This document shows, piece by piece, positions 8,559 through 44,169 of a stretch of 64,000 nucleotides of DNA. The position numbers and the translations under genes are program-made. Within the stretch, counting starts at the first letter, position 1, and every line of letters begins with the position of its first letter. The notes under the pieces were generated by a model. It was given only the letters and a program-made list of their open reading frames with translations, searched no databases and was not told the DNA's origin. This stretch comes from a virus: positions 1 through 64,000 of IMG/VR virus record IMGVR_UViG_3300047335_000017; one strand, 5' to 3'.

Positions 8559-11500
8559 TTACTGTTGTCCGAAGTTCCCGTAGGAAAGCATCCCTCTGCC
8601 GGCGATGTCTCGTGGCTGAACACCGATGGGTAGGCCCTGACCTCTCGCCAACATAGCAGCTCGTATATGTTCTGCGAAGGCCCTTCCGAAGTCGGCGATG
8701 GGAGGCTTGAGGCCCGGATGCGCTTGCGCGTATCGCTGACTTTCCGCCATCCACTCTTGGAACATCTGGGGATCGCCGCGCTGCTGAGCCAACATCAGAT
8801 GCCGAGTGATGTTCTGTTCGTTCAACTGCCGCATCGTATTGAGGCCCGTCGCCTCCTTCTTCACTTCATCGTACTCGGCCTCTTTTTGGGGATCGATGCC
8901 CATCACGGTCAGCGCCACATCCCAACCATTCGCGGAAATGGGTAATGGCGAACCGTTTTTATCCACAAAATTCCTCTGCGCGAGACGGAAGCCCTCCATC
9001 GGCGTCTTCATGAACTCGGGAACCATCTTGATCAGGCCATCCAGGTAGTCCCCGTTCGTAATGTCCCGAACGCCTCCCGCGAGCGTCATCAGCTCACCGA
9101 TCGACGAACCGCCCATGCTCTTGAGCCAATCCTTCTCCGCGTCCTCAAGCTTGCGCTTCTCGAAGAGCGCGTTGACCGTCGCCGAACCAGGAACAATGGT
9201 ACCTTCACCCCAATGATCGAAGTCCATGCCGATTGCTCGGGGAGCGCCACGAGCAATGATCTCGCCCATGTCTTTTCCGAAAGTGTTGGATAGAAACGTT
9301 CTGTACGAAGCAGTGATATCATGATCATCACTGTCGGTGAAGAAATCAGCCAGCCGATCGTAAACGGAGGCCATTACGCTCAACAGCGGAAGCCCGATAC
9401 TGCCCGCGAGGAACGTCACCGCCGCGAGATGCCCAGCCATCCATTTGGCGCTCTGCGCGTCCCCTCCAGCCATGGCGTGCGCCTCACGGTAGAGCTTGCC
9501 GGTCATCTTGATCTGCCACCCCATGAACTGATTGATCATGGGCGACATCGCGCCGAACGAACCGCCACGCGTCACCTGTCTGGCATTGAGTTGCGCGGTC
9601 CAGTCGCCTTGGCTCTCTTTAATGGCGTGGGAAACATATTCCTCCATGGAGAGCTGCTTACCCTCGACGACGGACTTCTGGGGAGCCGAGTTGTGAAGGT
9701 CGCGCGCCGCCAGCGCAGTCACGAGACGCGGCCACATCTCGCCGTAGAAGCCCAGGACGTTCATCGCTTTCCTGAAGCCCTCTGGAACGAAACCGCCTTC
9801 CTCGTGGCCCGCCAACATCTGAGGAGAGTACATCGCGTTGCCGAAGTCCCCACGGGCCACCTGACCCATGATGAACTTCACGATCGCCGGGGGAACGCCG
9901 CCTTTTTCCAGGGCCTCCTGACTGATGCCGGCGGTCGCCCAATCGGGGCTCGACGCGATGGCGCGCATGACCTTGAACGCCATCGGCGACGAGTTGAACA
10001 TCATCTGCGCGCCGCGCGCGTAGCCATGCGTCTTCCCGAACTCGGGGAGCGTGGTTGTCAACAACTGAGACATCAGCGTGAGCACGTAGGCCGGCGAAGA
10101 ACCGATGTGCAACGCATGCGTGAGATGCCTGAGCGCATCCAAGGGCGTCGGCGGCGTGTAGGTCTGCCTCAGGCGCTCGCGCATGAGAAGTTCCCCTACG
10201 GCCTGGGAGCCCGCGTTGATATCGGCGTCGGATGTGTTCGGATCGTGGTTCGCCGCCTTGACCTGATCCATCATCGCGGCGGAAGCACGTCCGACTTCGG
10301 CTGCAAGCGAAAGCCGGGAAATGCTCTTCGACATGATCGCCGAGCTGCGCGTCGAGTTCGCCATCATGTCCTTCGAGAAGCCCTGGACGTTCTCACGCCG
10401 GGCCATCAACCGGCCCATGGAGGTCTCGGGGAGCATGTTGAGCAAGTTCTGTTGCATATCCCGTAGCTGAGCGTATTGCGAGCGCTCCCACGCCGCCGGG
10501 TCCACTCCGGGAGGCGCGGGCGGGGCTTTGGCGCGGAACTGCTCGATCGCCCGACGCATGAACGCCGGGGAGATCGTGTTGAACAGACTTTCATCCGTGG
10601 CGGGACCAGCGCCCACGGCATCGTTCTTGTCGAGAAGCCCCGACTGCTGAGCCTTCAGAAACTCGCGACGAAGAGCCGCCGCTTCCGCCGCGTCGCGGAC
10701 CCTGATGTAGACCTTGGCGTTCCCGTTGCCGTCTTTGATATCCGCGTCGCCAAAGCCTGCCTTGTCCAACTGAGCCCTGAACTGGTTGACCTTTGACTGA
10801 TCATACGAGCCATCAGGGTTCGTGAAGAGCTTGCCCGAAACGAAGTGAGAGCCTGTCCTTCCGAGATGGAAGTAGGGGGATCGTTCTGCTTCCTTGCGCT
10901 TGCCCTGGACTGCCTCCAACATCTCCTTGACGTACTCACTGTCCGTCGTGAGACGCTTGACGCGATTGGACATCCCGGCAATCGCTTCCTCGGGAAGGCT
11001 GCCACTCTTCAGGCGCTCGACCAAGCGCGAGCCCAGGTCCGGCTTCACGCCACCAAAGGCTTTCGCTAGCTGCTCTGGCGTCAAACCCCTGAAAGCATCC
11101 GCCTGCTTTTCGAGAGCGAGCTGATCGCGCAGCTCGGTCCTCGATCCCGTCAGCTTGCCCTGGAACTCGGTCGTAGCGTCAACCGCCTGCGCAACCGCAT
11201 CTTTCCAAAAAGCCTCGGCTTTCGCGGGATGCTGATAGGCATCCGGCCTGCCGACGTATTCTCCGAACTTGTCGGTGATCCCCGGTATGCCGCCCTCAAA
11301 GCTGTCGGCCAGCATCTTGAGGCTGTTGAACAACGCCATGTGATACTCGGCCGAATGCTTGGCCCGGATCGTCTCGTACGCTTCCATGCCTCCAGCATGC
11401 TCACGCATCCCCAAGCTCGAATAGTCGCGATTGGCTTGGTTGACCTCGCGCATGAGCACGGCCTCGTTGGGAGCGCCGTGAAGATGCTGATGTTCGGACC

Positions 11501-14500
11501 AGGTTTTTCTCCAATCGATGTCCTGAGCCGTCAACGCCATCCCTTTTTCGACAAGTTCTTGGGTTGCGTGGGCAGTCGCATCGAACGCCCGCTTGGCCTC
11601 GACACCTATGCGCGCGAAAATGTCATCCCTCGTTCCCTGATCACGAAGGAGCCCAACGAAGTCGTGGATCGCCGGGATCACCCGACTGAATTGCATGTCT
11701 ATATGATGGCCGTCGACCCAGCCAAGGATGAACTTCCGAGCCGCGCTAGTGAAGTTGAGCGACTTATCCGTGAGCAACTGACGAAGGTTGTTCTGAACGA
11801 CGGAGCGCGTGACATCCGTGCTGTCGGAAACCTCCTTCATCGCCTCATCGGCTCGGTTCGCCGGGCTGGCCGGCGTAAAGTTCGGGTTCGGTTTGATGGA
11901 AGGGATTTCCTCGCCACGAGCAGGAGCGCTCGCTTCCACGTTGTCTTGCGCCAGCACTTGCGTGAGATCGAGAACGTGATCCACCAACGGCTGCTGATAC
12001 TCAGGGATTTTCAGGAGCTTCCCGACGATACGCTTGAAGAACGTCATCATGTTCCCAACGAAACCCTTGGGCGCGTCGAGAGACCGCATGAAGTTCTGGA
12101 AGGTCGGGTTCGTGTTCACTTCGGCCACGAACTCTTCGACGTTGCTCAGACCGTAGGCCTGATCATCTCCGGCCAAACGCTTGGTCCGTTCGAACGCCGC
12201 GATCATCATCCGCGCGGCGGTCCCACCAGCACGCAAAGCCTTGACGGTCGCTGCATGGATGAACTCATGCATGAGCGTTTGCTCAAGATAGCGCGGATTG
12301 TAGATGTTGATGCGGTCTAGCTTCGGATTGTACGAGCCGTCAACCATCTGACCAGCTTCATACGCACGAGAGTTGTCGAACTTGAAGCTGTCTGGCCTCG
12401 CGAACCTGATCTTCGGATTGATGCCCAACCGCGCAAGGAAAGCCGCCGCCTGACGAACAATCGGCGTCGAACCATTCTCCGCGAGATGCTGAAGAACATC
12501 GGAACTGTCCTTAGCCTTCTTGATCACGTTATAGAGATCGACATCATTCTGATCAACGCGACCATTGGGACGCGCGAAATCCGCGCGCGATGGAGAGTTC
12601 ACTGTCGCGCGAGAAACCGTCCTCGACTGAGTTACCGCCAGTTGCCTTTGCTGATACGCATCAATCTCGCTCTTGAGCGCTTTCGTGGCGCTCTCCACGG
12701 CTTTCCATGTGCCAGCCGTAGGCTTGACCAAACGCATCTGAAGCTCGTCGAGACGATCATAAAACTTCCTGGTTTCATCATCCAAAGGGAGCTGATGGAG
12801 ATATTCTCGAAGCTTCTCGATCGCGCGATATCGGGCTTGATTGCCCTTGGTCTCGATCTCGTTCGGATCGATCTTGGCCTGAGGACGCTCTTCGTCCTGA
12901 TACGCTCTCCTGGAGACTGATGGAATTTCCTTTCCGGCGCTCTTGTCGAGCTGATCGAGCAACGCGCTCACATCGTCTGAATGCCTAGAAACGGCGTCAA
13001 GAACGCTCTGAGGCGCGTTCTTGTCGAGAGCATGATCGAACAACGCCCCATGATCATCCATGATGGCATCGGGATCAATACTCGAAGTATCACCCTTGGC
13101 GATGGCCTCTCTCAGCGCGTTGAACTTCTCATTGACTCTCTTTACAAGAGCATCGAAGCCTGCCTGTTTCGAAGCCTCGAGCTTGACAGCTTTTAGCTCG
13201 TCCAACGAAGCGTTGGCCTTATTGAGAGCGCTGCTGACGCGAGGATCGACAGCCGGTTTGGGCGGCTCTGGGGGAGCTTTTCTCGCCGCATCGGCTTCGG
13301 CTTGGTTCTTGAACGGCTTGCGTTTGGGAGCCTCCCGCGCATCACGCTGATCGATGCGCGCCATCGTGGCTTTCGCCGCAGGGGAAGGTTCTGGGATAGG
13401 CTCGGAAACGTTTCGATTGAGGTTCAGATTTCTCAGAGCCTCACTCGAAAGACGCGCATTATGCTTGGCTGTCTTTAGCTTGTCTTCCGTGTCCAAACGA
13501 GCGCCATACGCCGCATCGACAGCATTCTTCGCGCTGGAAACAGCAACTCTAAGATTTTCTAATTTAATTTTAGTTTCTTTTGGTTGCTTATCAACCAATC
13601 TACTAACCTCGTTCATATTTTCATTTGCAACTTTTCTGAGCTGATCGAACTCAGCATCCTTCACACTCATAACGTCAAGGATATCTGAAATCTGACGCTC
13701 GATCTCAATATTCTTGGCGCTTTTCGCACGAGGTCTCAGAATGTTTTCCGGTTCCTTCTCGGCTTCAAGCGCGCTCATTTCTGTTCGAAGTTGACTGATC
13801 TCTTCAGCCAACTTGCTCAAACCAGCTTCGTGCTTGTCCTCCTTGCTACCAAAAGCAGACATGGCCTTGGCAAGCGCCGCCTTTGCAGACGCCAAATTAT
13901 TTCGAGCCATCTGCTCCATGCCGCGATGGGCGTCGAGTTGGTCACTCAACCTCCCCAGCTCGGCTTGACCCCTGACGGCGTCATCTTGGATAGCCTTGAT
14001 ACGCCAAGGCTCCATTGGAGTCTCTTGCTCAGCTTCCCCGGCGGCTGGCGTCTCTTCGGGAGCTGGAGCCCTCGGTTCGCCAGATGGCGCTGGCTTCGTC
14101 GAAGGCTTTTCCCAATAGGGCGTCCTCGAAGGCTCCGCGCCTTCCCGAGACCAACGCAGCTCTTCGACCGCCCGCTCCCATTCCGTGCCACGAGGCTTCT
14201 CAGTGGGAGATTTGCGCACGCGAGCCGCAGCCGTGGGCGCTTCCTGGATCGGCTGGGGCTTGAAGAGCTGTTCGCCGGCCCCTAGACCCTCGGAAATCAG
14301 CGTAGGCTCACCCCTGCCATTCGTGGCCTGCCCAGCCACCTTCGTTTGACCGCGATCGTTGGCGATGTTGAGCGCTTCCTCGCGCGTGACATACCGCCCC
14401 TTGGATGTGATGAAGCCTTCCGCGTTGGGCGTGTTCTTCATAAACTCCGCTACGTCCTCAGCGCTGCTTCCTGTCCGATCAATAGTCTTCGAGAACGCCA

Positions 14501-16817
14501 TGGCGTGCATCGGCGCTGTCTGGATCGTCCCATCTGGCGCGAGGTTCGCTGGAGCAATGACCTTCTCTGGACCTGGAGTATCGAAGTCAGACAACGATCG
14601 AGACGTGCCATTTTCCATGTGCACGGCAGGGTCCGATCCAGCCGGAAGAACGGGAGGAAAACCTCCCTCTGGAACAGATGCGCTCTTGGGCCGCAATCCC
14701 GTCAGGATTGCATCCATCGGGTCTAGTTGAGAGGGAATAGGGACGGCGGCTTGCGCCGCCGGTTGCTGAGCATCCTCCAATCCAGGGGGCGTGGCCAGAG
14801 GCTCGTTCGTGCCCATCTCGACGGGCTTCGCGTACTTGCCGATGGGCGTGCCGTCTTTGTCGGTAACGCCTAACTTAAAGCCCCATTTGGCAAGCGCATC
14901 GGTCATCTTCCCTTGATGCGCGGTATCGGCAATATGCTGGAGCACTTCGGCCTCAGAGCCGAACGTCTTCCCTCGCAATGCCCCTGGAACAGGGTTGCCG
15001 CCCTTGGCAGTCGCCTGACGATAGGCCGGCCAGTCAAAGCCGGGATCGGGAGGCGTGGGCGTGACTGGCGCTGACGGGGGAGCGGCAGAAGGCGCAAGGA
15101 GGCGTGGAGCGTTTGGGTCCTGCTCCATCAGCGTCCGCATCTTCATCTCGCGGCCAAGCTCGCCGAGAGCTTGCTGCGCACGAGCGCGCGTCCGCTCGCT
15201 ACCCGTGATCGACACGAGGTTGGCCATCTTGTTGGCACGGGTCACGAGTTCGTCGGTGGTCCACGTCCTGAACGGACGCGATTGCTCTTCATTCTCAGGA
15301 GGTACGTTGATCACGCGCGGAGGCGCACGCTCGCCGCCGAGTTGGATCGGTCGACCATCGGCGGTCGGAGCTTCCGGCGGGGCGGGCTCGCCCGGCGCTG
15401 GCGCGGGAAGGCCATCGGGTTCACCGAACGTAAACGGCGGTGCGCGACCTCGATCTCCAAAGAGATCGCCCTGCGCAAACCCACCGCGCAAATCGAATGC
15501 GCCCTGCTGAGGCTGAGGTGATGGCTTCGTGAAATCAAACGTGCCTTGAGAGGGCTGCCCTCCGGCCTCGGTGAACCGGCGCTCGATCTCAGCTCCAATC
15601 ATCTGATGAACTAGAGCATGATCGTCTGGTAGCTGCTGACCAGCAGATTTGGCGTCCTCGTAATATTTGAACGTGTCAAACAACTTCGAAATCGGCGCTT
15701 GGCGCAATACCGCCTGCATCCGATCTTCGGGAGTATCGTTCCCGTACATATTGATGGGCGGCGCTTCTTCGTCTGGAGGCCGCACGTAGTTGAAGCCCGA
15801 GACTTGCGCGGACGGCTCTGTTCCCTGAGTGCGCACCGCGACTTGCTGACCTGGAGGAAACTGGCCCAGGTCATAGTTCGTCTTTCCCCACTGAAACTGA
15901 TCCGGACCCTTAGCGCTCCCCGCGCCAGCCTGAGGATCGAGGAAGCGTGTCGCATCGTCCAGTTCACTGGTCGGAACGCTCGCGGCAGGCTTGGACACGA
16001 GGGCGCTCGTAGCGGCCCTGAGCCCGCCAGCCACACCGCCGAACACTGCTCCTTGCACGGCACCACCAAGCGCCGACTGAAGTATCTCGTTGGCGCGATC
16101 CGCAAGTGGTCTATTGGGATCACCCATTTGCTGAGTGAGATAAGTGGTCGCCGCAGCCGCCGGAACCTGTGCCGCCGCGCCGATCCCAGCTTGCTTGGCG
16201 ACATATCTCACCGCATCACCGATCGTCTTCCCGGCATAGTCGCCAGCGAACATATGCTCGATACGCGCGGGCACGATGGCCTGAAGCCCGGCCTCGGGGA
16301 CGCCGTACAAGAGCGCCTTTCCGGGAGATGTAAGAGCGCCAGTCTCGTCGATCTGGCGCTGCGCGTTGCCGCCCACGGACGAAGGATACATCGCTCCAGC
16401 CGCGCCCAGAAACGCCCCAAGCCCACCACCCACAACCTCTCCCGCGCCACCGCCAGCAGCCGCAGCGGCCAATCCAGGGAGACCTTTGGCGAGCTGATAG
16501 CCAATGCCCGGCAGAGACCATGGGTTCTCTTCCAGGTCGGGTCGGGCGAAGCTTTGGGCAGCCGCCTGCTGACGCTGCGCATAGGCCCCGGCGGACTGCG
16601 CGAAATTGTCCGCTCCTACCGCTTGCGCCAAGGTCTGCGCAAAGCGGCCACCCTGGGAGAGCAGTTCACCCATCCTCGCGCCGACACCCGCCCCAAACCA
16701 GTTTCCTGTTCCAGTGGCGGGCGGCGTATCTGGCGGTGGCAATGGCGCGGAAGGCTTGGAAAGATAGTCCTCGAAGCTGGGGACCATTTGGCTGTAATCA
16801 GGAACCGGGCCAGCCAT
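8559..16817 (-). CDS. giant virion (ejected/polyvalent-type) protein with a zincin-like HExxH motif
   Basis: Uninterrupted 2752-aa ORF. It has a Gly/Ala-rich hydrophobic N-terminus, Pro-rich linkers and a long coiled-coil middle. LMHEFIHAATV (HExxH) is encoded at 12255-12269. It occupies the position of large internal virion proteins in podovirus-like late operons. Confidence 0.8.
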   Translation of the reverse strand: MAGPVPDYSQMVPSFEDYLSKPSAPLPPPDTPPATGTGNWFGAGVGARMGELLSQGGRFAQTLAQAVGADNFAQSAGAYAQRQQAAAQSFARPDLEENPWSLPGIGYQLAKGLPGLAAAAAGGGAGEVVGGGLGAFLGAAGAMYPSSVGGNAQRQIDETGALTSPGKALLYGVPEAGLQAIVPARIEHMFAGDYAGKTIGDAVRYVAKQAGIGAAAQVPAAAATTYLTQQMGDPNRPLADRANEILQSALGGAVQGAVFGGVAGGLRAATSALVSKPAASVPTSELDDATRFLDPQAGAGSAKGPDQFQWGKTNYDLGQFPPGQQVAVRTQGTEPSAQVSGFNYVRPPDEEAPPINMYGNDTPEDRMQAVLRQAPISKLFDTFKYYEDAKSAGQQLPDDHALVHQMIGAEIERRFTEAGGQPSQGTFDFTKPSPQPQQGAFDLRGGFAQGDLFGDRGRAPPFTFGEPDGLPAPAPGEPAPPEAPTADGRPIQLGGERAPPRVINVPPENEEQSRPFRTWTTDELVTRANKMANLVSITGSERTRARAQQALGELGREMKMRTLMEQDPNAPRLLAPSAAPPSAPVTPTPPDPGFDWPAYRQATAKGGNPVPGALRGKTFGSEAEVLQHIADTAHQGKMTDALAKWGFKLGVTDKDGTPIGKYAKPVEMGTNEPLATPPGLEDAQQPAAQAAVPIPSQLDPMDAILTGLRPKSASVPEGGFPPVLPAGSDPAVHMENGTSRSLSDFDTPGPEKVIAPANLAPDGTIQTAPMHAMAFSKTIDRTGSSAEDVAEFMKNTPNAEGFITSKGRYVTREEALNIANDRGQTKVAGQATNGRGEPTLISEGLGAGEQLFKPQPIQEAPTAAARVRKSPTEKPRGTEWERAVEELRWSREGAEPSRTPYWEKPSTKPAPSGEPRAPAPEETPAAGEAEQETPMEPWRIKAIQDDAVRGQAELGRLSDQLDAHRGMEQMARNNLASAKAALAKAMSAFGSKEDKHEAGLSKLAEEISQLRTEMSALEAEKEPENILRPRAKSAKNIEIERQISDILDVMSVKDAEFDQLRKVANENMNEVSRLVDKQPKETKIKLENLRVAVSSAKNAVDAAYGARLDTEDKLKTAKHNARLSSEALRNLNLNRNVSEPIPEPSPAAKATMARIDQRDAREAPKRKPFKNQAEADAARKAPPEPPKPAVDPRVSSALNKANASLDELKAVKLEASKQAGFDALVKRVNEKFNALREAIAKGDTSSIDPDAIMDDHGALFDHALDKNAPQSVLDAVSRHSDDVSALLDQLDKSAGKEIPSVSRRAYQDEERPQAKIDPNEIETKGNQARYRAIEKLREYLHQLPLDDETRKFYDRLDELQMRLVKPTAGTWKAVESATKALKSEIDAYQQRQLAVTQSRTVSRATVNSPSRADFARPNGRVDQNDVDLYNVIKKAKDSSDVLQHLAENGSTPIVRQAAAFLARLGINPKIRFARPDSFKFDNSRAYEAGQMVDGSYNPKLDRINIYNPRYLEQTLMHEFIHAATVKALRAGGTAARMMIAAFERTKRLAGDDQAYGLSNVEEFVAEVNTNPTFQNFMRSLDAPKGFVGNMMTFFKRIVGKLLKIPEYQQPLVDHVLDLTQVLAQDNVEASAPARGEEIPSIKPNPNFTPASPANRADEAMKEVSDSTDVTRSVVQNNLRQLLTDKSLNFTSAARKFILGWVDGHHIDMQFSRVIPAIHDFVGLLRDQGTRDDIFARIGVEAKRAFDATAHATQELVEKGMALTAQDIDWRKTWSEHQHLHGAPNEAVLMREVNQANRDYSSLGMREHAGGMEAYETIRAKHSAEYHMALFNSLKMLADSFEGGIPGITDKFGEYVGRPDAYQHPAKAEAFWKDAVAQAVDATTEFQGKLTGSRTELRDQLALEKQADAFRGLTPEQLAKAFGGVKPDLGSRLVERLKSGSLPEEAIAGMSNRVKRLTTDSEYVKEMLEAVQGKRKEAERSPYFHLGRTGSHFVSGKLFTNPDGSYDQSKVNQFRAQLDKAGFGDADIKDGNGNAKVYIRVRDAAEAAALRREFLKAQQSGLLDKNDAVGAGPATDESLFNTISPAFMRRAIEQFRAKAPPAPPGVDPAAWERSQYAQLRDMQQNLLNMLPETSMGRLMARRENVQGFSKDMMANSTRSSAIMSKSISRLSLAAEVGRASAAMMDQVKAANHDPNTSDADINAGSQAVGELLMRERLRQTYTPPTPLDALRHLTHALHIGSSPAYVLTLMSQLLTTTLPEFGKTHGYARGAQMMFNSSPMAFKVMRAIASSPDWATAGISQEALEKGGVPPAIVKFIMGQVARGDFGNAMYSPQMLAGHEEGGFVPEGFRKAMNVLGFYGEMWPRLVTALAARDLHNSAPQKSVVEGKQLSMEEYVSHAIKESQGDWTAQLNARQVTRGGSFGAMSPMINQFMGWQIKMTGKLYREAHAMAGGDAQSAKWMAGHLAAVTFLAGSIGLPLLSVMASVYDRLADFFTDSDDHDITASYRTFLSNTFGKDMGEIIARGAPRAIGMDFDHWGEGTIVPGSATVNALFEKRKLEDAEKDWLKSMGGSSIGELMTLAGGVRDITNGDYLDGLIKMVPEFMKTPMEGFRLAQRNFVDKNGSPLPISANGWDVALTVMGIDPQKEAEYDEVKKEATGLNTMRQLNEQNITRHLMLAQQRGDPQMFQEWMAESQRYAQAHPGLKPPIADFGRAFAEHIRAAMLARGQGLPIGVQPRDIAGRGMLSYGNFGQQ

Positions 16818-36309: not shown

Positions 36310-37446
36310 GTGAAGAGTAAACTGATCCAGAAACTAACTAAGATGGAGACGGCGCGAGCCGTCATGGTCAAGTCACATGCGTTCTATGCATGTCTGGTTC
36401 TCAACACTAAGATGGTTGAAGACCCGACGTGTGATACCGCATGGACGAACTATGTGAGCATCGGCTACAATCCAGACTTCATCGAGGGCCTGGACGTGCC
36501 GACCGTCATCTTCGTGCTAGCGCATGAAGTGATGCATGTAGCACTTAAGCACAACATCCGTCGCGGCACGCGAAACCCGGAGAAATGGAACCGCGCCGCC
36601 GACTATGCGATCAATTGGATGCTGCACGAGCAGGGCTTCAAGATATGGAAGAGCTGTTTGATCGACTCCAAGTTCAAGGACATGAGCGCCGAACAGATAT
36701 ACGATCTGATCCGCGACGAGCCCGGGGACGGCGATGGTGGCGGCATGAGCGGCGATGGTGGCGGCATGAGCGGCGATCTGCGACCACCGCCGCGGATGAC
36801 CGAGGAACAGGCAGCCAAGGTCAACACTCAGGTCAACCGAGCCATCGCGCAAGCAACCATGATGGCCAAGGCTCGCGGACAGATGCCATCCAACATGGAG
36901 ATGCTGATCGAGAACATCTACGACGAACCGATCCCTTGGGATCAGGTGCTCTTGGAATACATGCGCCGAGTCATCAAGTGCGACGAGAACTGGTCACGAC
37001 GCAATCGTAGGTTCTCCAACGTCGTGCTGCCGTCGAGACATTCGCCGGGCATGAACGAGCTTGTCATCGTGGCCGACAGTTCGGGCAGCATGTTCATCAA
37101 GGAAGTCTTCGAGCGCGTGGCAACCGCCGTCGACTACATCGTTCGTGTCGTCAAGCCCTTGGCTGTCCGCGTCGTGTGGGCCGACGATGACGAGTGCTCC
37201 AACCAGGACTTCTTCCTGCCGGGAGAAACGATCGTGCTGCATCCCAAGGGTGGCGGCGGCACGGACATGCGCTTGGCATGTAACTATGTTAGGCAGTATG
37301 ACCCGGAGGTAGTTTTACTCATAACGGATGGATATACGCCTTGGGACACAGAACCATATTCCTACCCACTGATCGTGGCTTGCACGACGGACGCTCCATG
37401 CCCCAACTATGCACAAGTGGTTCGGATCGATGTGAACTCAGGCTGA
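36310..37446 (+). CDS. zincin-like metallopeptidase / VWA-domain protein (partner of the MoxR ATPase)
   Basis: 378 aa with VLAHEVMHVALKH (HExxH) in the N-terminal half and VIVADSSGSM (a DxSxS MIDAS-type motif) in the C-terminal half. Confidence 0.7.
   Translation: MKSKLIQKLTKMETARAVMVKSHAFYACLVLNTKMVEDPTCDTAWTNYVSIGYNPDFIEGLDVPTVIFVLAHEVMHVALKHNIRRGTRNPEKWNRAADYAINWMLHEQGFKIWKSCLIDSKFKDMSAEQIYDLIRDEPGDGDGGGMSGDGGGMSGDLRPPPRMTEEQAAKVNTQVNRAIAQATMMAKARGQMPSNMEMLIENIYDEPIPWDQVLLEYMRRVIKCDENWSRRNRRFSNVVLPSRHSPGMNELVIVADSSGSMFIKEVFERVATAVDYIVRVVKPLAVRVVWADDDECSNQDFFLPGETIVLHPKGGGGTDMRLACNYVRQYDPEVVLLITDGYTPWDTEPYSYPLIVACTTDAPCPNYAQVVRIDVNSG
36730..36777. repeat. 21-bp in-frame tandem repeat
   Basis: GGCGATGGTGGCGGCATGAGC x2 plus a partial third copy, encoding GDGGGMSGDGGGMSGD. 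Confidence 0.85.
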
Positions 37447-37961
37447 AGTTCGGGAGGCTCACTACGATCGAGCGAGTTCGCGTAGGCACGCCACCCAAGA
37501 CTAGGTTCGCTTGGGTGTGCTCATGCGAATGTGGCAAGACGACCGGACCTGTGATGATGAAACATCTCGTGTCTGGTCACACAAGAAGCTGCGGTTGCGT
37601 TCAGCATGAGGCTGTTAAACGCACGGGAGAAGAACAACGTCACGGTCACTCGAAACGATCAGGTAAATCAGGAACCTATCGATCTTGGATGGCTATGTGG
37701 GGGCGGTGTCGTCAACAAGGTAGACGATACTACCATGATAAAGGCATCAAGGTTTGTCCTCGTTGGATGATTTTTGAGAACTTCCTCGCGGATATGGGTG
37801 AACGCCCGCCTGGGCTTACGATAGACCGGCTTGACTGTTCAAAAGATTACGAGCCTGGAAACTGTAGGTGGGCCACATGGACTGAGCAATGCGAGACAAG
37901 AACGAAACGTTTCAACCGTAGAGGAACAATCCATGGCCGGAAAGCACACCGTATCCGTTGA
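37398..37961 (+). CDS. HNH-like homing endonuclease paralog 1 (start uncertain, C-terminally shorter)
   Basis: Homology to the other two paralogs (FGRLTT..C.CECG...SCGC...YRSW..MW.RC...GIKVCPRW..FENFLADMGERPPGLTIDRLD....YEPGNCRWAT) begins exactly at the stop codon of the VWA gene. The only in-frame ATGs (37341, 37398) lie inside that gene. Confidence 0.5.
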   Translation: MPQLCTSGSDRCELRLKFGRLTTIERVRVGTPPKTRFAWVCSCECGKTTGPVMMKHLVSGHTRSCGCVQHEAVKRTGEEQRHGHSKRSGKSGTYRSWMAMWGRCRQQGRRYYHDKGIKVCPRWMIFENFLADMGERPPGLTIDRLDCSKDYEPGNCRWATWTEQCETRTKRFNRRGTIHGRKAHRIR

Positions 37962-38408: not shown

Positions 38409-38870
38409 ATGCCCTTTGTGAAGGGCCATGATGGCAGCGCGAGCTTCAAGCATGGTGCAGCTTCCCGATCCGGTCTGACGCCGACCTATCGGATATGGCG
38501 CGACATGAAGTCGCGCTGCTCTAATCCAAACCGTAAGGACTATAGGTATTACGGTGGGCGTGGGATTAAGGTTTGCGAGAGATGGTTGGAGTTCTCTAAC
38601 TTCCTCGCCGACATGGGTGAGCGTCCTGAAGGTCTCACTCTTGAACGCAAAGATAATAACCTCGGTTATTCAAAAGAGAATTGCCGATGGGCGACTAGAG
38701 CTGAACAGAACCTCAACTCTAGAAACAATCGAAATATTACCTACGCTGGGAAGACACTCTGCATACGTCAGTGGGCTCTCAACTTAGGTATCCGCGAAGC
38801 AACGATACGAAATAGGTTGGATCGTCTTGGCTGGTCTATTGACCGAACACTAACTCAAGGGAGAGTTTAA
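38409..38870 (+). CDS. HNH-like homing endonuclease paralog 2 (free-standing)
   Basis: 153 aa reading YRIWRDMKSRCSNP..YYGGRGIKVCERWLEFSNFLADMGERPEGLTLERKDNNLGYSKENCRWATRAEQNLN, plus a C-terminal HTH-like tail. Confidence 0.65.
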   Translation: MPFVKGHDGSASFKHGAASRSGLTPTYRIWRDMKSRCSNPNRKDYRYYGGRGIKVCERWLEFSNFLADMGERPEGLTLERKDNNLGYSKENCRWATRAEQNLNSRNNRNITYAGKTLCIRQWALNLGIREATIRNRLDRLGWSIDRTLTQGRV

Positions 38871-41313: not shown

Positions 41314-44169
41314 ATGTGGGACTATAGAGATTACGCCTCGTTCGACTTTGAAACGTCGGGCACGCTCCCCGAGTACGCGCTCCAACCATGGCGCGTCGCG
41401 CAAGGCAAAGCGTGGCCGACATCACTTGTCTGGTTATGGAATGAGGATGGACATGGCCGTCATGACGGAGGACTATTCCCTACCAGAAAACTGGTTCGAA
41501 CTATGCTTGAATGGGCGCTGGACGAGAGACGCATCCTCGTGGGATGGAACACTGTTTTCGACATCTCGTGGCTTTACGCCCTCGCGCCCGAGAGACTTGT
41601 TAACGAGTGCCGATTTCTGGATGCAATGCTTCTCTGGCGACATCTCGATATCGAGCCTGAGTACGACGAGAGCGGGCGGACCAAGCGCTCCTACTCGCTT
41701 AAAGTTGCCTTCCCCGAGTTCTATCCCGAGCACGCCGGATACGAGCAAGAAATCGACTATCACTCAACCGATCCCGACGAGCTGCGAAAGCTGCACGAGT
41801 ACAACGTCCTGGATTGCGCCTTCACCCTTAGGCTCGCCAAGAGGTTCTGGGAAGGGCTGAAGTCCAAACAGCAGTCGACGGCTGTCGTGGAGGCGCGCTG
41901 CCTGAACATGGTGGGGCAGGCGAACCTCGAAGGGCTGATCATCGATCCCCTGGAGGTTGCGCAACTCTCGGCCAGCCTGAAGGTCACGGCGGCGAAGAAG
42001 CTCAAGTCGCTCGCGCCGCACGGGATCAGCGAAGAGGTTGTCCGATCGCCGGCCAAGCTCAGTAAAGTGATGTTCGACGATTGGAAGCTACCAGTTTACA
42101 GAGAGAACGAAAGCAAGAAGACTGGTAAGGTTTCCAGGTCCACGGATAAAGAAACTCTCCACGAGTTGTCGTTCATTGATCCACGCGCCAAAGAACTGCG
42201 TGAGTACCGCGAGGCCTTGAACACTGATACAAAGTTCGCGATGGCCCCAATCGCGGCGTGCGCATACAACGAGGACGGTAAGGCGCATCCCCTCGCGCGT
42301 GTGTTCGGAACCTATTCGGGCCGGATGACCTACAGCTCGAAGCAAGGCAAGAACAAGGACGAACGCCAGATCGGGTTCGCCCTGCACCAGGAAAAGCGCG
42401 AGGCGGCCTTCAGGCGCATCGTCGTGCCACCGCTGGGTTACACGCTCGTGGAGTTCGATGCCGCCGGCCAGGAGTTCAAGCTCATGGCGATCGCCAGCAA
42501 GGACCCTGTGATGCTCCAGCTTTGCCAGCCAGGGGAGGACGCGCACTCGTTCATGGGGGCCAGGGTTCTGAAGCGCGACTATGCCTGGGTCATGCAGCAC
42601 AAGGACAGTGATCCCATCGCCAAGAACGGCAGGAAATCTGGCAAGGTAGCTAATTTGTGCTGTAGTCATTCTTCTCCTATCTTGACAGACCGAGGGCATG
42701 TCGCCATACAGGACGTGCGATGCGACGACCTCATATGGGATGGGATCGAGTTCGTCGCACACGACGGTGTGGTGTTCAGCGGCGTGCGCGAAGTTGTCAC
42801 TCATGACGGGGTGACGGCGACGCCTGAACACCTTGTTCTCGTCAATCAAGAGTGGGTGCGTCTTGACGAAGCAAAAAGAAATGGTTGGAGCATCCAGTCC
42901 TCACGTCGGTCAACGCTTCGGATTGTGGACGGTATTGTCGCCCGAGTTAGAAAAACGTTCTGGCGAGAAATATGTGCGGTGTGCGTGTGTATGCGGAACC
43001 GTGGCATGGGTGCTTTACTCCAACGCGGTATGGGGAAAGTCGCAGGGATGCAGGAGTTGTGCGGTCAGAATACGACACGCTCGGGCTGGGCATCACATCA
43101 ACCAAACCTCGGTGGATCGAGCGCTGCAACAGAGGACAGCCAACTGGTTCTCTCGGTGCTCGAACCCGAACGATGGATCGTGGTGCAACTACGGCGCGCG
43201 TGGGATCGAGTGTCGGTTTACTTCGGTCAAGGAGGCGGTGGAGTACGTCAAGGCGACGCTGCCGCACCCGACCTATCAGGGACTAGATATAGATCGGATC
43301 GACAACGATGGGCATTACGAGCCGGGCAACCTCCGGTTGGTCACACGCAAGGTGAACCTGTTGAACAAGCGTGGTTCCAACATGGTTATATGGAAGGGGG
43401 AATTGATTACGACGCAAAGCTGGGCCGAAAGCCCATACTCGTTGACCTGTACGATGCGCTATGCGGCGCAAGGGCTTTCTGGCGAAGCTATCCTGCGCCG
43501 CGCCCACGAAGCCGTAGTGAAGAAACGCAAAGGCTGGCGCAAGATCGAAGCGAAGCTCCGGTCTACGACATTGTGAACTGTGGGCCTCGATCGCGCTTCT
43601 CTGCGAACGGTCGGATCGTTCACAACTCACTGATGTATAGAACGAGCGCCCCGAGACTTAGATCAACCGCGCGCGTCGACTACGGCATGCCAATGACCAT
43701 GGATGAAGCACGCTACATCAGGAAGACTTATCTACAATCATATAAGCGCGTCCCTGTATATTGGAGTGAGCAGATAATGCGCACTCGGCAGTTAGGTTAT
43801 GTCGAGACGTTCGCTGGCCGGCGCGTGAAAGTCCAAGGTGATTGGCAGGGGAACTTCGCTTGGAACATGGGCTCGACTGCCATCAACTATCGTATCCAAG
43901 GGACTGGCGCTGACCAGAAATATCTGGCACTCATGATGCTTGCCGATTACCTTTCCGAGATCGGCGCGCGGTTCGCTTTGGATTTCCACGACGGCCTGTA
44001 TTTCTACGTGCCGGACGAGAAGGTTTATGACATGGTGCACCACACGAAGGATGTTCTTGACAACCTTCCTTATGAAGCGGTGTGGAAATTCAAGATGCCG
44101 ATACCCCTGACGTGGGACGCGAAAATTGGCCCTTCGTGGGGAGACCTCAAACCTTACGAGTTTAAGTAG
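41314..44169 (+). CDS. family-A DNA polymerase with 3'-5' exonuclease domain, interrupted by an intein
   Basis: Exo motifs are FDFETSG, WNTVFD and YNVLD. Pol motif A is LVEFDAAGQEFKLMA. Motif B is split as RKSGKVANL | intein | SLMYRTS. Motif C is LDFHDGLYFYV. The frame is open over all 951 codons. Confidence 0.85.
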   Translation: MWDYRDYASFDFETSGTLPEYALQPWRVAQGKAWPTSLVWLWNEDGHGRHDGGLFPTRKLVRTMLEWALDERRILVGWNTVFDISWLYALAPERLVNECRFLDAMLLWRHLDIEPEYDESGRTKRSYSLKVAFPEFYPEHAGYEQEIDYHSTDPDELRKLHEYNVLDCAFTLRLAKRFWEGLKSKQQSTAVVEARCLNMVGQANLEGLIIDPLEVAQLSASLKVTAAKKLKSLAPHGISEEVVRSPAKLSKVMFDDWKLPVYRENESKKTGKVSRSTDKETLHELSFIDPRAKELREYREALNTDTKFAMAPIAACAYNEDGKAHPLARVFGTYSGRMTYSSKQGKNKDERQIGFALHQEKREAAFRRIVVPPLGYTLVEFDAAGQEFKLMAIASKDPVMLQLCQPGEDAHSFMGARVLKRDYAWVMQHKDSDPIAKNGRKSGKVANLCCSHSSPILTDRGHVAIQDVRCDDLIWDGIEFVAHDGVVFSGVREVVTHDGVTATPEHLVLVNQEWVRLDEAKRNGWSIQSSRRSTLRIVDGIVARVRKTFWREICAVCVCMRNRGMGALLQRGMGKVAGMQELCGQNTTRSGWASHQPNLGGSSAATEDSQLVLSVLEPERWIVVQLRRAWDRVSVYFGQGGGGVRQGDAAAPDLSGTRYRSDRQRWALRAGQPPVGHTQGEPVEQAWFQHGYMEGGIDYDAKLGRKPILVDLYDALCGARAFWRSYPAPRPRSRSEETQRLAQDRSEAPVYDIVNCGPRSRFSANGRIVHNSLMYRTSAPRLRSTARVDYGMPMTMDEARYIRKTYLQSYKRVPVYWSEQIMRTRQLGYVETFAGRRVKVQGDWQGNFAWNMGSTAINYRIQGTGADQKYLALMMLADYLSEIGARFALDFHDGLYFYVPDEKVYDMVHHTKDVLDNLPYEAVWKFKMPIPLTWDAKIGPSWGDLKPYEFK
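42658..43626 (+). mobile_element. intein (323 codons) inserted in polymerase motif B
   Basis: The N-terminal Cys codon is at 42658 (CCSHSSPILTDRGHVAIQDV, block A), with a TxxH block (TATPEH). C-terminal blocks are VYDIVNCG..FSANGRIVHN, followed by the +1 Ser at 43627. Confidence 0.7.
42833..43576 (+). CDS. HNH-like homing endonuclease paralog 3, nested inside the intein in the +1 frame relative to the polymerase
   Basis: 247-aa ORF (a possible start is also the MVGASS ATG at 42881). GQRFGLWTV..CACVCG..CRSC...WFSRCSNPND..YGARGIE...GLDIDRIDNDGHYEPGNLRLVT is homologous to 37398..37961 and 38409..38870. Confidence 0.6.
   Translation: MFSSIKSGCVLTKQKEMVGASSPHVGQRFGLWTVLSPELEKRSGEKYVRCACVCGTVAWVLYSNAVWGKSQGCRSCAVRIRHARAGHHINQTSVDRALQQRTANWFSRCSNPNDGSWCNYGARGIECRFTSVKEAVEYVKATLPHPTYQGLDIDRIDNDGHYEPGNLRLVTRKVNLLNKRGSNMVIWKGELITTQSWAESPYSLTCTMRYAAQGLSGEAILRRAHEAVVKKRKGWRKIEAKLRSTTL

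Follow-up and report, generated by a model that had tools for sequence, protein, structure and literature searches.

The window, by which is meant the whole 64,000-nucleotide stretch of viral DNA that was analysed, contains a gene for a family A DNA polymerase precursor with matches to Pfam DNA_pol_A (PF00476, E 2.3e-39) and to phrog_17, DNA polymerase. The polymerase frame is interrupted by a putative intein without being closed by it, and between the splicing blocks of this insert there is a second ORF, one base off, for a predicted HNH-like endonuclease. Two free-standing paralogues of the endonuclease, used as controls, lie upstream. The features are as follows.

41314..44169 (+): family A DNA polymerase precursor gene, a single uninterrupted ORF of 951 codons that includes the putative intein
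41314..42657 (+): 448-codon N-extein, which terminates within polymerase motif B at ...RKSGKVANL; aligns colinearly with the PolA of phages Effie and Xp15, which have no intein
42658..43626 (+): putative intein in the polymerase frame, 323 codons, Cys1 to His322-Asn323, supported by an AF2 model and Foldseek
42658..42897 (+): N-terminal Hint half, intein residues 1-80, with block A (Cys1) and block B; pLDDT 95-97
42898..43548 (+): central stretch in the polymerase frame, intein residues 81-297, a stop-free 'shadow' of the endonuclease gene
43549..43626 (+): C-terminal Hint half, blocks F and G, VYDIVNCGPRSRFSANGRIVHN; pLDDT about 95
43627..44169 (+): C-extein, from Ser+1 (SLMYRTSA...) to the stop codon
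42881..43576 (+): +1-frame ORF of 231 aa, from ATG to TGA, for a predicted HNH-like homing endonuclease, supported by PHROG, omega, pLDDT and BFVD
43292..43336 (+): core motif of the predicted endonuclease, read as DRIDNDGHYEPGNLR in the +1 frame and as ...SDRQRWALRAGQPP... in the polymerase frame
37398..37961 (+): free-standing endonuclease paralogue, 187 aa (PHROG 374, E 4e-44)
38409..38870 (+): free-standing endonuclease paralogue, 153 aa (PHROG 3377, E 1.4e-53)

The putative intein in polymerase motif B

Motif B of the polymerase is interrupted as ...GKVANL|SLMYR. The insert starts with Cys1, which is codon 449 of the ORF (TGC, 42658-42660), carries block B as T55-P-E-H58 at 42820..42831, and ends with its blocks F and G at 43626, followed by Ser at 43627 (IVHN|S is at 43615..43629). 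C1, T55, H58 and N323 are all invariant in 35 homologues. The first-pass annotation had described a polymerase frame open for 951 codons with canonical intein ends in motif B, and all of its coordinates are correct. When the insert is spliced out, the 628-aa product aligns gap-free across the junction with the intein-less PolA of Effie and Xp15; the intein-less junction reads ...AAGGTAGCTAATTTG|TCACTGATGTAT....

An AF2 model of the polymerase-frame intein was made with a 35-sequence alignment. Residues 1-80 and 298-323 take on a Hint fold (pLDDT 95-97). The centre is modelled at pLDDT 40-55, mostly with no secondary structure and with short helices at its edges only. For the folded part, the best 40 PDB matches found by Foldseek are inteins or Hint domains, mostly with a probability of 1.00 and with E from 9.5e-4; these include gp41-1, Ssp DnaB and Npu DnaE (probability 1.00). 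The insert thus has the position-1 nucleophile, the TxxH, the His-Asn|Ser junction, the Hint fold and the colinear host by which class 1 inteins are recognised. Since the host gene is essential, the splicing blocks are intact and the frame is kept open, it would be expected to undergo protein splicing.

The window sequence has no match to the Pfam intein models at E 0.01, and an Rfam scan of 42300..44000 has no match at E <= 1. A group I or group II intron with an endonuclease ORF does not fit, there being no Rfam ribozyme, an open host frame and Hint blocks.

A predicted endonuclease gene, one base out of frame

The +1 frame is open from 42815. Its first start codon, TTG at 42833, gives the 247-aa ORF (42833..43576) that had been reported from the sequence and is indeed present; ATG 42881 is the likelier start, as it aligns with a GTG in the closest relative (locus L004). 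The TGA stop codon at 43574..43576 is made from the codons of Val306 and Asn307 in the intein.

The +1 product matches PHROG families annotated as HNH endonuclease with E values of 5e-29 to 2e-8 (374, E 5e-29; 3377, E 6e-19; and also 2081), and PHROG 1035, 'endonuclease VII', at E 0.0034 only. Both free-standing paralogues match PHROG 374 and 3377 as well. Homology of the embedded endonuclease to these two genes had been called clear; it is real, but only moderate, with BLASTP E values of 4e-6 for 37398..37961 (a 39 aa core) and 4e-11 for 38409..38870 (92 aa, 33%). An AlphaFold model of the +1 product has a pLDDT of 94.1, with a strand-strand-helix arrangement in residues 135-161 (strands 135-139 and 151-155, helix 156-161), and its structure matches in BFVD include phage proteins annotated as HNH endonuclease, at E down to 9e-13. 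R139, Y146 and N150 do not vary, and at least 90% of sequences share H145 and N162.

It is possible, although unlikely, that the product is functional without being a homing nuclease, for example as a DNA-binding or regulatory protein no longer capable of catalysis. The canonical first catalytic His of the HNH motif, which would close the first strand of the strand-strand-helix metal-binding core, is absent, the sequence being D-R-I-D with the invariant Arg139 where DH or HH is expected. The Pfam and NCBIfam HNH models do not match the +1 product (HNH_3 is touched by only 2 of 47 homologues, at E 0.11), its model has no fold match in the PDB at E <= 0.001, and among its BFVD neighbours several carry AP2/ERF or DNA-binding labels. 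PacI, however, is an HNH enzyme that likewise lacks the usual His, and there is a weak two-segment colinear similarity to it (E 0.23). The PHROG families of the product are annotated as HNH endonuclease, its position is exactly that of intein endonuclease domains, and its sporadic distribution over several sites and several genes is typical for homing elements.

The +1 product is probably translated separately. A start codon is kept, as ATG in the window and GTG in L004, and lies at or near the same place in most relatives. There is no Shine-Dalgarno sequence at ATG 42881, where anti-SD pairing is -0.2 kcal/mol compared with -6 to -10.6 for ordinary window genes; over 15 embedded ORFs the mean is -3.2, the same as background. 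No promoter-like site was found within the polymerase gene.

A programmed +1 (or -2) frameshift out of the polymerase frame, producing a fusion of the N-extein and N-terminal Hint half to the HNH protein, would suit the missing Shine-Dalgarno sequence, the many relatives whose +1 frame has 20-75 stop-free codons ahead of the domain, and the one relative (L016) that has no ATG, GTG or TTG near the conserved start position. It is nonetheless a shade less likely even than the loss of catalysis. At the frame junction, neither the comparison of the window with L004 nor that of 16 loci shows a conserved slippery or stall motif, and the A-run ahead of ATG 42881 is missing in L004. In L003, L004, L011 and L070 the start codon comes right after a +1-frame stop, with no space left for a shift, so a separate ORF fits these loci and a frameshift fusion does not.

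Stop codons, selection and recurrence

Across the +1 ORF there are 0 stop codons in the polymerase frame, against 7.7 +/- 2.1 expected from 3000 synonymous shuffles (0/3000 reach 0). The same relative frame (-1) contains 14 stops in the free-standing paralogue at 37398..37961 and 16 in that at 38409..38870. It is clear that the open polymerase frame over the insert is far beyond chance, as the first-pass annotation had argued from its length. A polymerase-frame stop needs a T-ending HNH codon before a codon starting with AA, AG or GA, so synonymous endonuclease codons can purge every stop; T-ending codons occupy none of the 49 positions before such a codon and 37 of the 181 elsewhere. Over distinct loci the stop counts are bimodal, with 0 in 17, 1 in none, and at least 2 in the remainder.

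The main comparison of selection was between the window and L004, the inteins of which align gap-free over 969 nt with 72% identity. There is purifying selection on the polymerase frame at both intein ends, with an omega of 0.20 in the N-terminal Hint half and 86% amino-acid identity in the C-terminal Hint half. In the centre it is the +1 frame that has the low omega, 0.23, against 1.13 for the polymerase frame, and differences by polymerase codon position are 92/48/48. Three further pairs have the same pattern (+1 frame pS saturated, pN about 0.25-0.29), and the polymerase-frame omega of the centre over the four pairs is 1.1-2.0. The frame under selection changes exactly at the domain borders. 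These comparisons bear out the earlier reading: homologues have no polymerase-frame amino-acid conservation of the centre beyond that imposed by the +1 frame. The window and L004 share 73-86% identity in the intein and 53-65% in the exteins; there is only mild evidence that the element may have moved recently in the window's lineage.

The central peptide of the polymerase frame is rich in Arg (12.9%) and Gly (11.5%) compared with the extein (7.0% and 5.9%), as had been noted previously. That this basic peptide is itself functional, in nucleic-acid binding or splicing control for example, making this a case of true dual coding, is improbable. Its length is steady, at 309/309/309 codons for the insert in three relatives and 323/323 in the window and L004, but this is because the endonuclease is constrained. 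A motif, DRQRRxLR, recurs in it, but this is how the endonuclease core, DRIDNDGHYEPGN in the +1 frame, comes out when read in the polymerase frame. The polymerase-frame omega of the four pairs and the nearly complete lack of predicted secondary structure, despite the 35-sequence alignment, also speak against a function. The central stretch in the polymerase frame would act as a linker.

The same +1 layout turns up repeatedly in unrelated phages, many in number. Isolated phages that have it are Streptococcus phage Javan113, Gardnerella phage vB_Gva_AB1 and Shewanella phage SFCi1. So do about 30 of 80 IMG/VR loci, of which about 22 are distinct, and 28 of 80 genome loci spread over many phyla. 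Among its hosts are several PolA sites and helicases. The embedded endonucleases group together, the nearest neighbour also being embedded in 20 out of 22, and the +1 ORF is intact in every embedded case. Within the lineage the arrangement is retained down to about 37-45% amino-acid identity. Hint relatives at the same polymerase site include mini-inteins and split inteins (P0003, L086), with L086 and L084 being in split form.

The existence of these mini-inteins and split inteins, together with the undetected ribosome-binding site, would suit an endonuclease ORF that is a decaying relic, left open in an intein that is becoming a mini-intein. Strong purifying selection on the +1 frame (omega 0.23, with the three other pairs in agreement), the intact ORFs, a product predicted to fold (pLDDT 94) and persistence of the arrangement over such divergence make this very improbable. 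Weakest is an artefact of sequencing or assembly in which two compensating indels displaced the in-frame HNH domain of a canonical bifunctional intein: +1 and -1 indels flanking the domain would yield such a layout and the window contig, from public assembly collections, is of uncertain quality, but paired indels are excluded because the same frame relation is present in dozens of independent genomes, among them complete isolated-phage genomes as well as metagenomic and genomic contigs, the inteins of the window and L004 align without a gap, and a displaced domain would carry about 8-15 polymerase-frame stops where 0 are present, so that this reading is effectively refuted.

The locus is thus quite probably an intein in motif B with a nested HNH-like nuclease gene of the free-standing type, one base off, in which the precursor is read through and spliced and the nuclease is translated separately. 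The placement of an endonuclease between the splicing blocks in the +1 frame, and the need for read-through, had been proposed before and are supported by the comparative and statistical evidence. The polymerase frame would be translated straight through its 951 codons, with the insert ends (residues 1-80 and 298-323) assembling into one Hint domain and the intervening ~215 residues, a meaningless stop-free translation of the endonuclease gene, serving only as a flexible tether. The Hint domain would then remove the 323-residue insert and ligate ...KVANL to SLMY..., giving a polymerase of 628 aa. Separate, and probably rare, initiation at ATG 42881 in the +1 frame would give the 231-aa endonuclease. 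This would be expected to cleave intein-less polymerase alleles in co-infecting phages, so that repair would copy in the intein and nuclease as a unit (homing). The +1 offset is the cheapest overlap of the two readings.

Relation to known systems and significance

An intein with an out-of-frame endonuclease is not unprecedented, the general architecture having been reported in preprints of 2025-2026. The earlier statement that no such intein was known is outdated: inteins with an endonuclease in another frame or on the other strand are described in actinobacteriophages (Gosselin, Arsenault and Gogarten, bioRxiv 10.1101/2025.01.02.630785), and the title of a September 2026 preprint refers to an out-of-frame endonuclease in a cyanobacterial dnaX intein. 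The closest type of Gosselin et al., the 'endonuclease VII-like HEN in frame 3', likewise has intact host-frame splicing blocks, a same-strand, out-of-frame ORF for a free-standing-type endonuclease between them, a stop-free host frame, and an in-frame centre for which prediction gives no recognisable structure. In both cases a free-standing endonuclease gene is proposed to have invaded an intein. However, the endonuclease of the window is of a different family (PHROG 374/3377, DRxD-type HNH-like), with its catalytic core in the middle of 231 aa rather than an endonuclease VII-like core at residues 1-67, and its offset is +1 (frame 2) rather than frame 3. The host is motif B of a family A DNA polymerase, rather than DNA polymerase III alpha, minor capsid protein, terminase or thymidylate synthase. 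The carriers here are not actinophages and the lineage is widespread, whereas that preprint calls such architectures rare.

The 'hidden' HNH insertions of ShiLan type, which lie out of frame in phage DNA methylases (Arsenault et al., Genes 2025, PMC11855218), similarly have an HNH ORF overprinted on a stop-free host-frame insertion, no detectable ribosome-binding site and a homing-like distribution. The ShiLan insert lacks a splicing domain and is believed to remain in the protein, whereas the window ORF is flanked by complete Hint blocks, and the ShiLan HNH is in the third frame, canonical and zinc-finger-flanked, unlike that of the window. In fractured genes (Dassa et al., NAR 2009, PMC2677866), a free-standing endonuclease gene separates the two halves of a split intein; it too is at the position of the endonuclease domain, with the Hint halves encoded on either side; the host in the window, however, is one continuous ORF of 951 codons and splicing would be in cis, via a translated linker, rather than in trans. 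Canonical bifunctional inteins with an in-frame HNH domain are known in phages (per Gosselin et al., bioRxiv 10.1101/2025.01.02.630785) and also combine Hint and an HNH-type nuclease as one mobile unit in a conserved site of an essential gene, but the window nuclease is predicted to be a separate +1-frame product, outside the intein polypeptide. What is new here is the other endonuclease family and host gene, the quantitative evidence of selection, and that the arrangement is common and long-lived rather than rare.

The origin of intein homing endonucleases is an old question, the usual answer being that a free-standing gene invaded a splicing-only element. This has so far been based mainly on split inteins with adjacent endonuclease genes. 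The locus and its relatives represent a working intermediate, in which the nuclease is still its own gene, nested in the intein, and the host frame is forced open.

It may be, on evenly balanced grounds, that out-of-frame placement is a stable and probably selected design rather than a short-lived accident of invasion, with an HNH-like clade, represented by hundreds to thousands of protein clusters, that has stayed inside Hint domains, one base off, to less than 45% identity and has relocated between three or more PolA sites, SF2 helicases and further genes, in phages of many bacterial phyla. If so, the offset would uncouple the dose of nuclease from that of an abundant replication protein, via weak initiation without a Shine-Dalgarno sequence or possibly recoding. 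Intein and endonuclease could then stay separate genes indefinitely, which would have a direct bearing on the model in which inteins arose by 'splicing first, endonuclease invades later'.

Gene callers annotate a single long polymerase and miss the nuclease, so many phage endonucleases are hidden; in the window's own cluster the polymerase is called and the nuclease is not. The shadow peptide makes this a natural intein in which about 215 unstructured residues are tolerated, which is relevant to intein engineering, and the family is a clean test bed for internal initiation without a Shine-Dalgarno sequence within a translated gene.

The intein and its nested endonuclease gene

The features on which the analysis rests are as follows.

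Features of the polymerase gene, the intein and the endonuclease family in the window
41314..44169, plus strand: DNA polymerase ORF, 951 codons (Pfam DNA_pol_A, E 2.3e-39; PHROG 17, DNA polymerase)
42658..43626, plus strand: intein, 323 codons, between ...GKVANL and SLMYR... in polymerase motif B
42658-42660 (TGC), plus strand: Cys, intein residue 1, polymerase-frame translation
42820..42831, plus strand: block B, T55-P-E-H58, polymerase-frame translation
Up to 43626, plus strand: intein C-terminal end, VYDIVNCGPRSRFSANGRIVHN, then Ser, polymerase-frame translation
Intein-less junction, the putative endonuclease target: ...GGCAAGGTAGCTAATTTG joined to TCACTGATGTATAGA...
42833..43576, plus strand: endonuclease ORF, +1 frame (PHROG 374, E 5e-29; PHROG 3377, E 6e-19; both annotated HNH endonuclease)
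37398..37961 and 38409..38870: free-standing paralogues, with PHROG 374 and 3377 matches as for the endonuclease ORF

The first-pass annotation had described an uninterrupted polymerase frame of 951 codons, canonical intein ends and a motif B split by the insert, and all three were borne out, by the ORF itself, by the presence of Cys1, TPEH and the C-terminal end followed by Ser, and by removal of the insert, which gives a 628 aa protein colinear with intein-less polymerases. In the alignment with such relatives that the annotation had proposed, the PolA proteins of Acinetobacter phage Effie and Xanthomonas phage Xp15 are gapless across the junction (32% identity). The nearest PolA proteins to the window's polymerase have only about 28% identity, and a megablast search of 50,697 phage records with the polymerase gene gave no match. 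Neither the intein nor the endonuclease ORF belongs to a Pfam or NCBIfam family. An intron is argued against because no Rfam intron or other RNA family matches the region.

The AlphaFold2 model of the polymerase-frame intein (35-sequence alignment) has a pLDDT of 95-97 over residues 1-80 and of about 95 over residues 298-323, and this folded part matched the solved inteins gp41-1, Ssp DnaB, Npu DnaE and Mtu RecA at probability 1.00. The centre, a 'shadow' peptide in this frame, has a pLDDT of 40-55 and almost no secondary structure. The +1 product is modelled with a mean pLDDT of 94.1 (47-sequence alignment), with a strand-strand-helix at residues 135-161 that bears the conserved DRIDNDGHYEPGNLR motif.

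The +1 ORF was found as first described, as was its homology to both free-standing genes, which are in the same PHROG families (BLASTP E 4e-6 for 37398..37961 and 4e-11 for 38409..38870). Its start is likely ATG 42881, giving 231 aa. Neighbours in the viral structure library BFVD are phage proteins annotated as HNH or homing endonucleases, with E down to 9e-13. Sequence searches of the PDB gave no significant match, the sole similarity being a weak, colinear one in two segments to the HNH restriction enzyme PacI (3ldy, E 0.23). Foldseek comparison of the model with the PDB also gave none, so the 'HNH' label comes from the PHROGs, the BFVD neighbours and the motif. A scan of the window for the HNH core pattern matched the known site alone. 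The endonuclease is an atypical enzyme: in its family an invariant Arg stands where the HNH motif should have its first His (DRxD; 43292..43336 in the window), and a CxC...CxxC cluster is conserved at the N-terminus. The two free-standing paralogues are about 450 nt apart, upstream of replication genes, and 38409..38870 has a strong Shine-Dalgarno sequence (TAGGAG). Elsewhere in the window, 8559..16817 on the minus strand is a single ORF of 2752 codons, presumably encoding a giant virion or tail-associated protein of a phage-like genome.

Selection in the two reading frames

The closest relative is locus L004 (IMGVR_UViG_3300047496_000106, 62.6 kb; L-numbers denote loci with relatives of the endonuclease), whose polymerase gene carries this intein at the identical site. 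Each copy is 969 nt long, and they align without gaps at 72% identity. The frame-by-frame comparison of synonymous and nonsynonymous change suggested in the first-pass annotation finds the ends constrained in the polymerase frame and the centre in the +1 frame.

Nei-Gojobori omega and differences between the window and L004, by polymerase codons of the intein (differences at polymerase codon positions 1/2/3)
N-terminal Hint (splicing domain), codons 1-74: omega 0.20 in the polymerase frame and 1.05 in +1; differences 16/10/37
Centre, codons 75-301: omega 1.13 (53% aa identity) in the polymerase frame and 0.23 (73.5% aa identity) in +1; differences 92/48/48
C-terminal Hint, codons 302-323: aa identity 86% in the polymerase frame and 29% in +1; differences 3/3/13

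In the centre, position 3 of the endonuclease codons is position 1 of the polymerase codons. Both frames are stop-free there in the window and in L004, and the third frame has 9 and 7 stops. The switch of selection between frames is repeated in three pairs from unrelated lineages (L001/L005, L001/L002 and L015/L024), with host-frame omega rising from 0.17-0.35 at the ends to 1.2-2.0 in the centre, where in the +1 frame pS is saturated (0.78-0.91) and pN is 0.25-0.29.

The long stop-free polymerase frame, which had been judged improbable by chance, is indeed so. Across the endonuclease ORF it has no stops, against 7.7 +/- 2.1 expected from synonymous-codon shuffles, zero being reached in 0 of 3000; the corresponding frame of the free-standing paralogues has 14 and 16. 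The third frame is at chance level, with 9 stops and 10.6 in shuffles. A polymerase-frame stop is possible only where an endonuclease codon ending in T precedes one starting with AA, AG or GA. T-ending codons occupy none of the 49 positions before an AA, AG or GA codon, against 37 of 181 elsewhere, and in the paralogues they occupy 14 of 42 and 16 of 44. Chance and error are excluded as the origin of this layout. The Hint halves are under selection in the polymerase frame, the nested +1 gene is under selection of its own, and the stop-free host frame is enforced.

Intein parts are 73-86% identical between the window and L004, and exteins (the flanking polymerase parts) 53-65%; evidence for recent transfer in the window's own lineage is modest. 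The L004 polymerase gene also has an insert of 237 nt (L004:2226-2462), absent from the window, with two polymerase-frame stops and a small CxxC...CxxC ORF (MPERAKPVREIYVCKRCGK...), after which the polymerase resumes at MPDLPIGFALHQ. The polymerase may be split here, or the insert may be a further small mobile element.

Borders of the overlap and proposed expression of the endonuclease

The endonuclease gene starts inside the final codons of the N-terminal Hint half and closes with TGA 43574-43576, which is formed by two block F codons, GTG (Val306) and AAC (Asn307). The (Leu/Val)-Asn pair conserved in this block has the same effect in relatives, where it yields a +1-frame TGA or TAA. In most relatives an ATG, GTG or TTG coincides with a conserved K-P-E-x-V-G-x-x-[FY]-G position or is only a few codons away; none of the three is near it in L016. 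Some embedded endonuclease ORFs, among them L003:2462 and L070:2743, begin with the identical peptide M-T-D, because conserved Hint-frame codons (...T-N-D-G-W... or ...Y-D-G...) read ATG ACG GAT in the +1 frame. In these ORFs it is therefore the conservation of the splicing domain that provides the nested gene with a start codon.

No Shine-Dalgarno sequence precedes the endonuclease (anti-SD pairing energy -0.2 kcal/mol; neighbouring genes have -6 to -10.6), and over 15 embedded ORFs the mean of -3.2 equals the in-ORF background. No promoter-like site was found inside the polymerase gene. Production by programmed frameshifting is unlikely, since a search found no conserved slippery motif and four loci have a stop directly before the endonuclease start codon. 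On the most likely reading, the endonuclease would be translated separately, from ATG 42881. The precursor would be translated through the whole insert, and the Hint halves would associate across an unstructured tether of ~215 residues and splice the insert out, restoring motif B. The endonuclease would then drive homing of the intein and nuclease as a unit into empty alleles.

Distribution and relation to described systems

In a tblastn search of the 50,697 phage records, the best matches of the endonuclease are inside annotated DNA polymerase genes, in Streptococcus phages Javan113, 101, 107, 104, 255 and PhiSdyV1524, Gardnerella phage vB_Gva_AB1 and Shewanella phage SFCi1. In Javan113, vB_Gva_AB1 and SFCi1 the match is +1 to the annotated CDS, the polymerase frames are open (961, 968 and 1101 aa), with 0 host-frame stops each against 14.7, 8.6 and 3.7 expected from shuffles, and the insert ends are CIAEG...TATPDH...VYDI.NAGP..RF....LVHN followed by C.

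In IMG/VR, about 30 of 80 loci with endonuclease relatives are embedded in an ORF of over 400 codons in another frame, including all of the 20 most similar to the window's endonuclease. In bacterial genomes (one per species) 28 of 80 are embedded, in Alphaproteobacteria, Alteromonadaceae, Acidobacteriaceae, Brevibacillus, Lachnospiraceae, Actinomycetaceae, Ignavibacteriaceae, Pedobacter, Planctomycetaceae, Methylobacterium and others. The host proteins are PolA (motif A, motif B and a C-terminal site), SF2 helicases and some proteins without identification. Stop counts in the -1 frame are bimodal over 68 distinct loci, with 0 in 17, 1 in none and at least 2 in 51 (mean 7.4 per 100 codons). Long HNH-frame ORFs at L054, L045, L077 and L059 were considered as in-frame versions and rejected as free-standing genes in GC-rich DNA.

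A word-index search with the polymerase-frame intein gave only 5 proteins, and exhaustive phmmer was used instead. Run against 1.84 billion cluster representatives, it matched 2507 proteins at E <= 1e-3, of which 1248 reached E <= 1e-10. Among the best 150, about 45 align in a single stretch to the whole 323-residue intein, 'shadow' centre included.

The nearest neighbour is embedded for 20 of 22 embedded endonucleases and free for all 50 free ones. Embedded endonucleases are thus mutually closest, so the arrangement has lasted through deep divergence and does not arise anew time after time. The SFCi1 endonuclease has a free-standing nearest neighbour and may have been captured independently. 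Nearly all embedded IMG/VR loci are +1. A +2 minority, L011-L014 in IMG/VR and L102, L124 and L167 in genomes, has more divergent Hint ends (CLKGDTPVLT ... VVAHN followed by C) and may reflect independent capture or a frame change.

Split and mini forms occur among relatives of the window's Hint family. At L086:3-2572 (ENA ERZ28594015 scaffold_6158) a split intein of this family divides PolA between two genes: the upstream gene ends in an N-terminal half (...RW, then CLAEG...TATPEH...KK and a stop), and the next, overlapping by ATGA, starts with the C-terminal half (MKTYDILNAGP...VSN, then S). This PolA additionally carries a mini-intein without endonuclease at the window's motif-B site. At L084:4001-5458 (ENA ERZ27236845 k141_68204) the polymerase C-terminal gene opens directly with a C-terminal half (MSDIRPVYDIANCGPRHRF...VHN, then S). 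The genes upstream of it encode small, unrelated proteins; the N-terminal part must therefore lie elsewhere, in what looks like a trans-splicing arrangement.

The interpretation first put forward, an intein with a nested out-of-frame endonuclease, is supported by frame-wise selection, stop avoidance, folds and recurrence. The accompanying statement that no such intein was known does not hold. Gosselin, Arsenault and Gogarten (bioRxiv 10.1101/2025.01.02.630785) reported similar actinobacteriophage inteins with antisense LAGLIDADG and antisense VSR-like endonucleases, and with a same-strand 'endonuclease VII-like' one in frame 3; they called such inteins rare and suggested that free-standing endonuclease genes invade them. 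An out-of-frame HNH in a methylase that lacks any splicing domain comes from the same group (PMC11855218), a September 2026 preprint, by its title, reports an out-of-frame endonuclease in the cyanobacterial dnaX intein, and split inteins whose halves flank a free-standing endonuclease gene are known (Dassa et al. 2009, PMC2677866). The window's case has another endonuclease family, another frame offset, another host gene and a different host range, and full-text literature searches found no description of it. What remains of most interest is quantitative: a large, old and widely distributed lineage in which the nuclease is a separate out-of-frame gene inside the intein.
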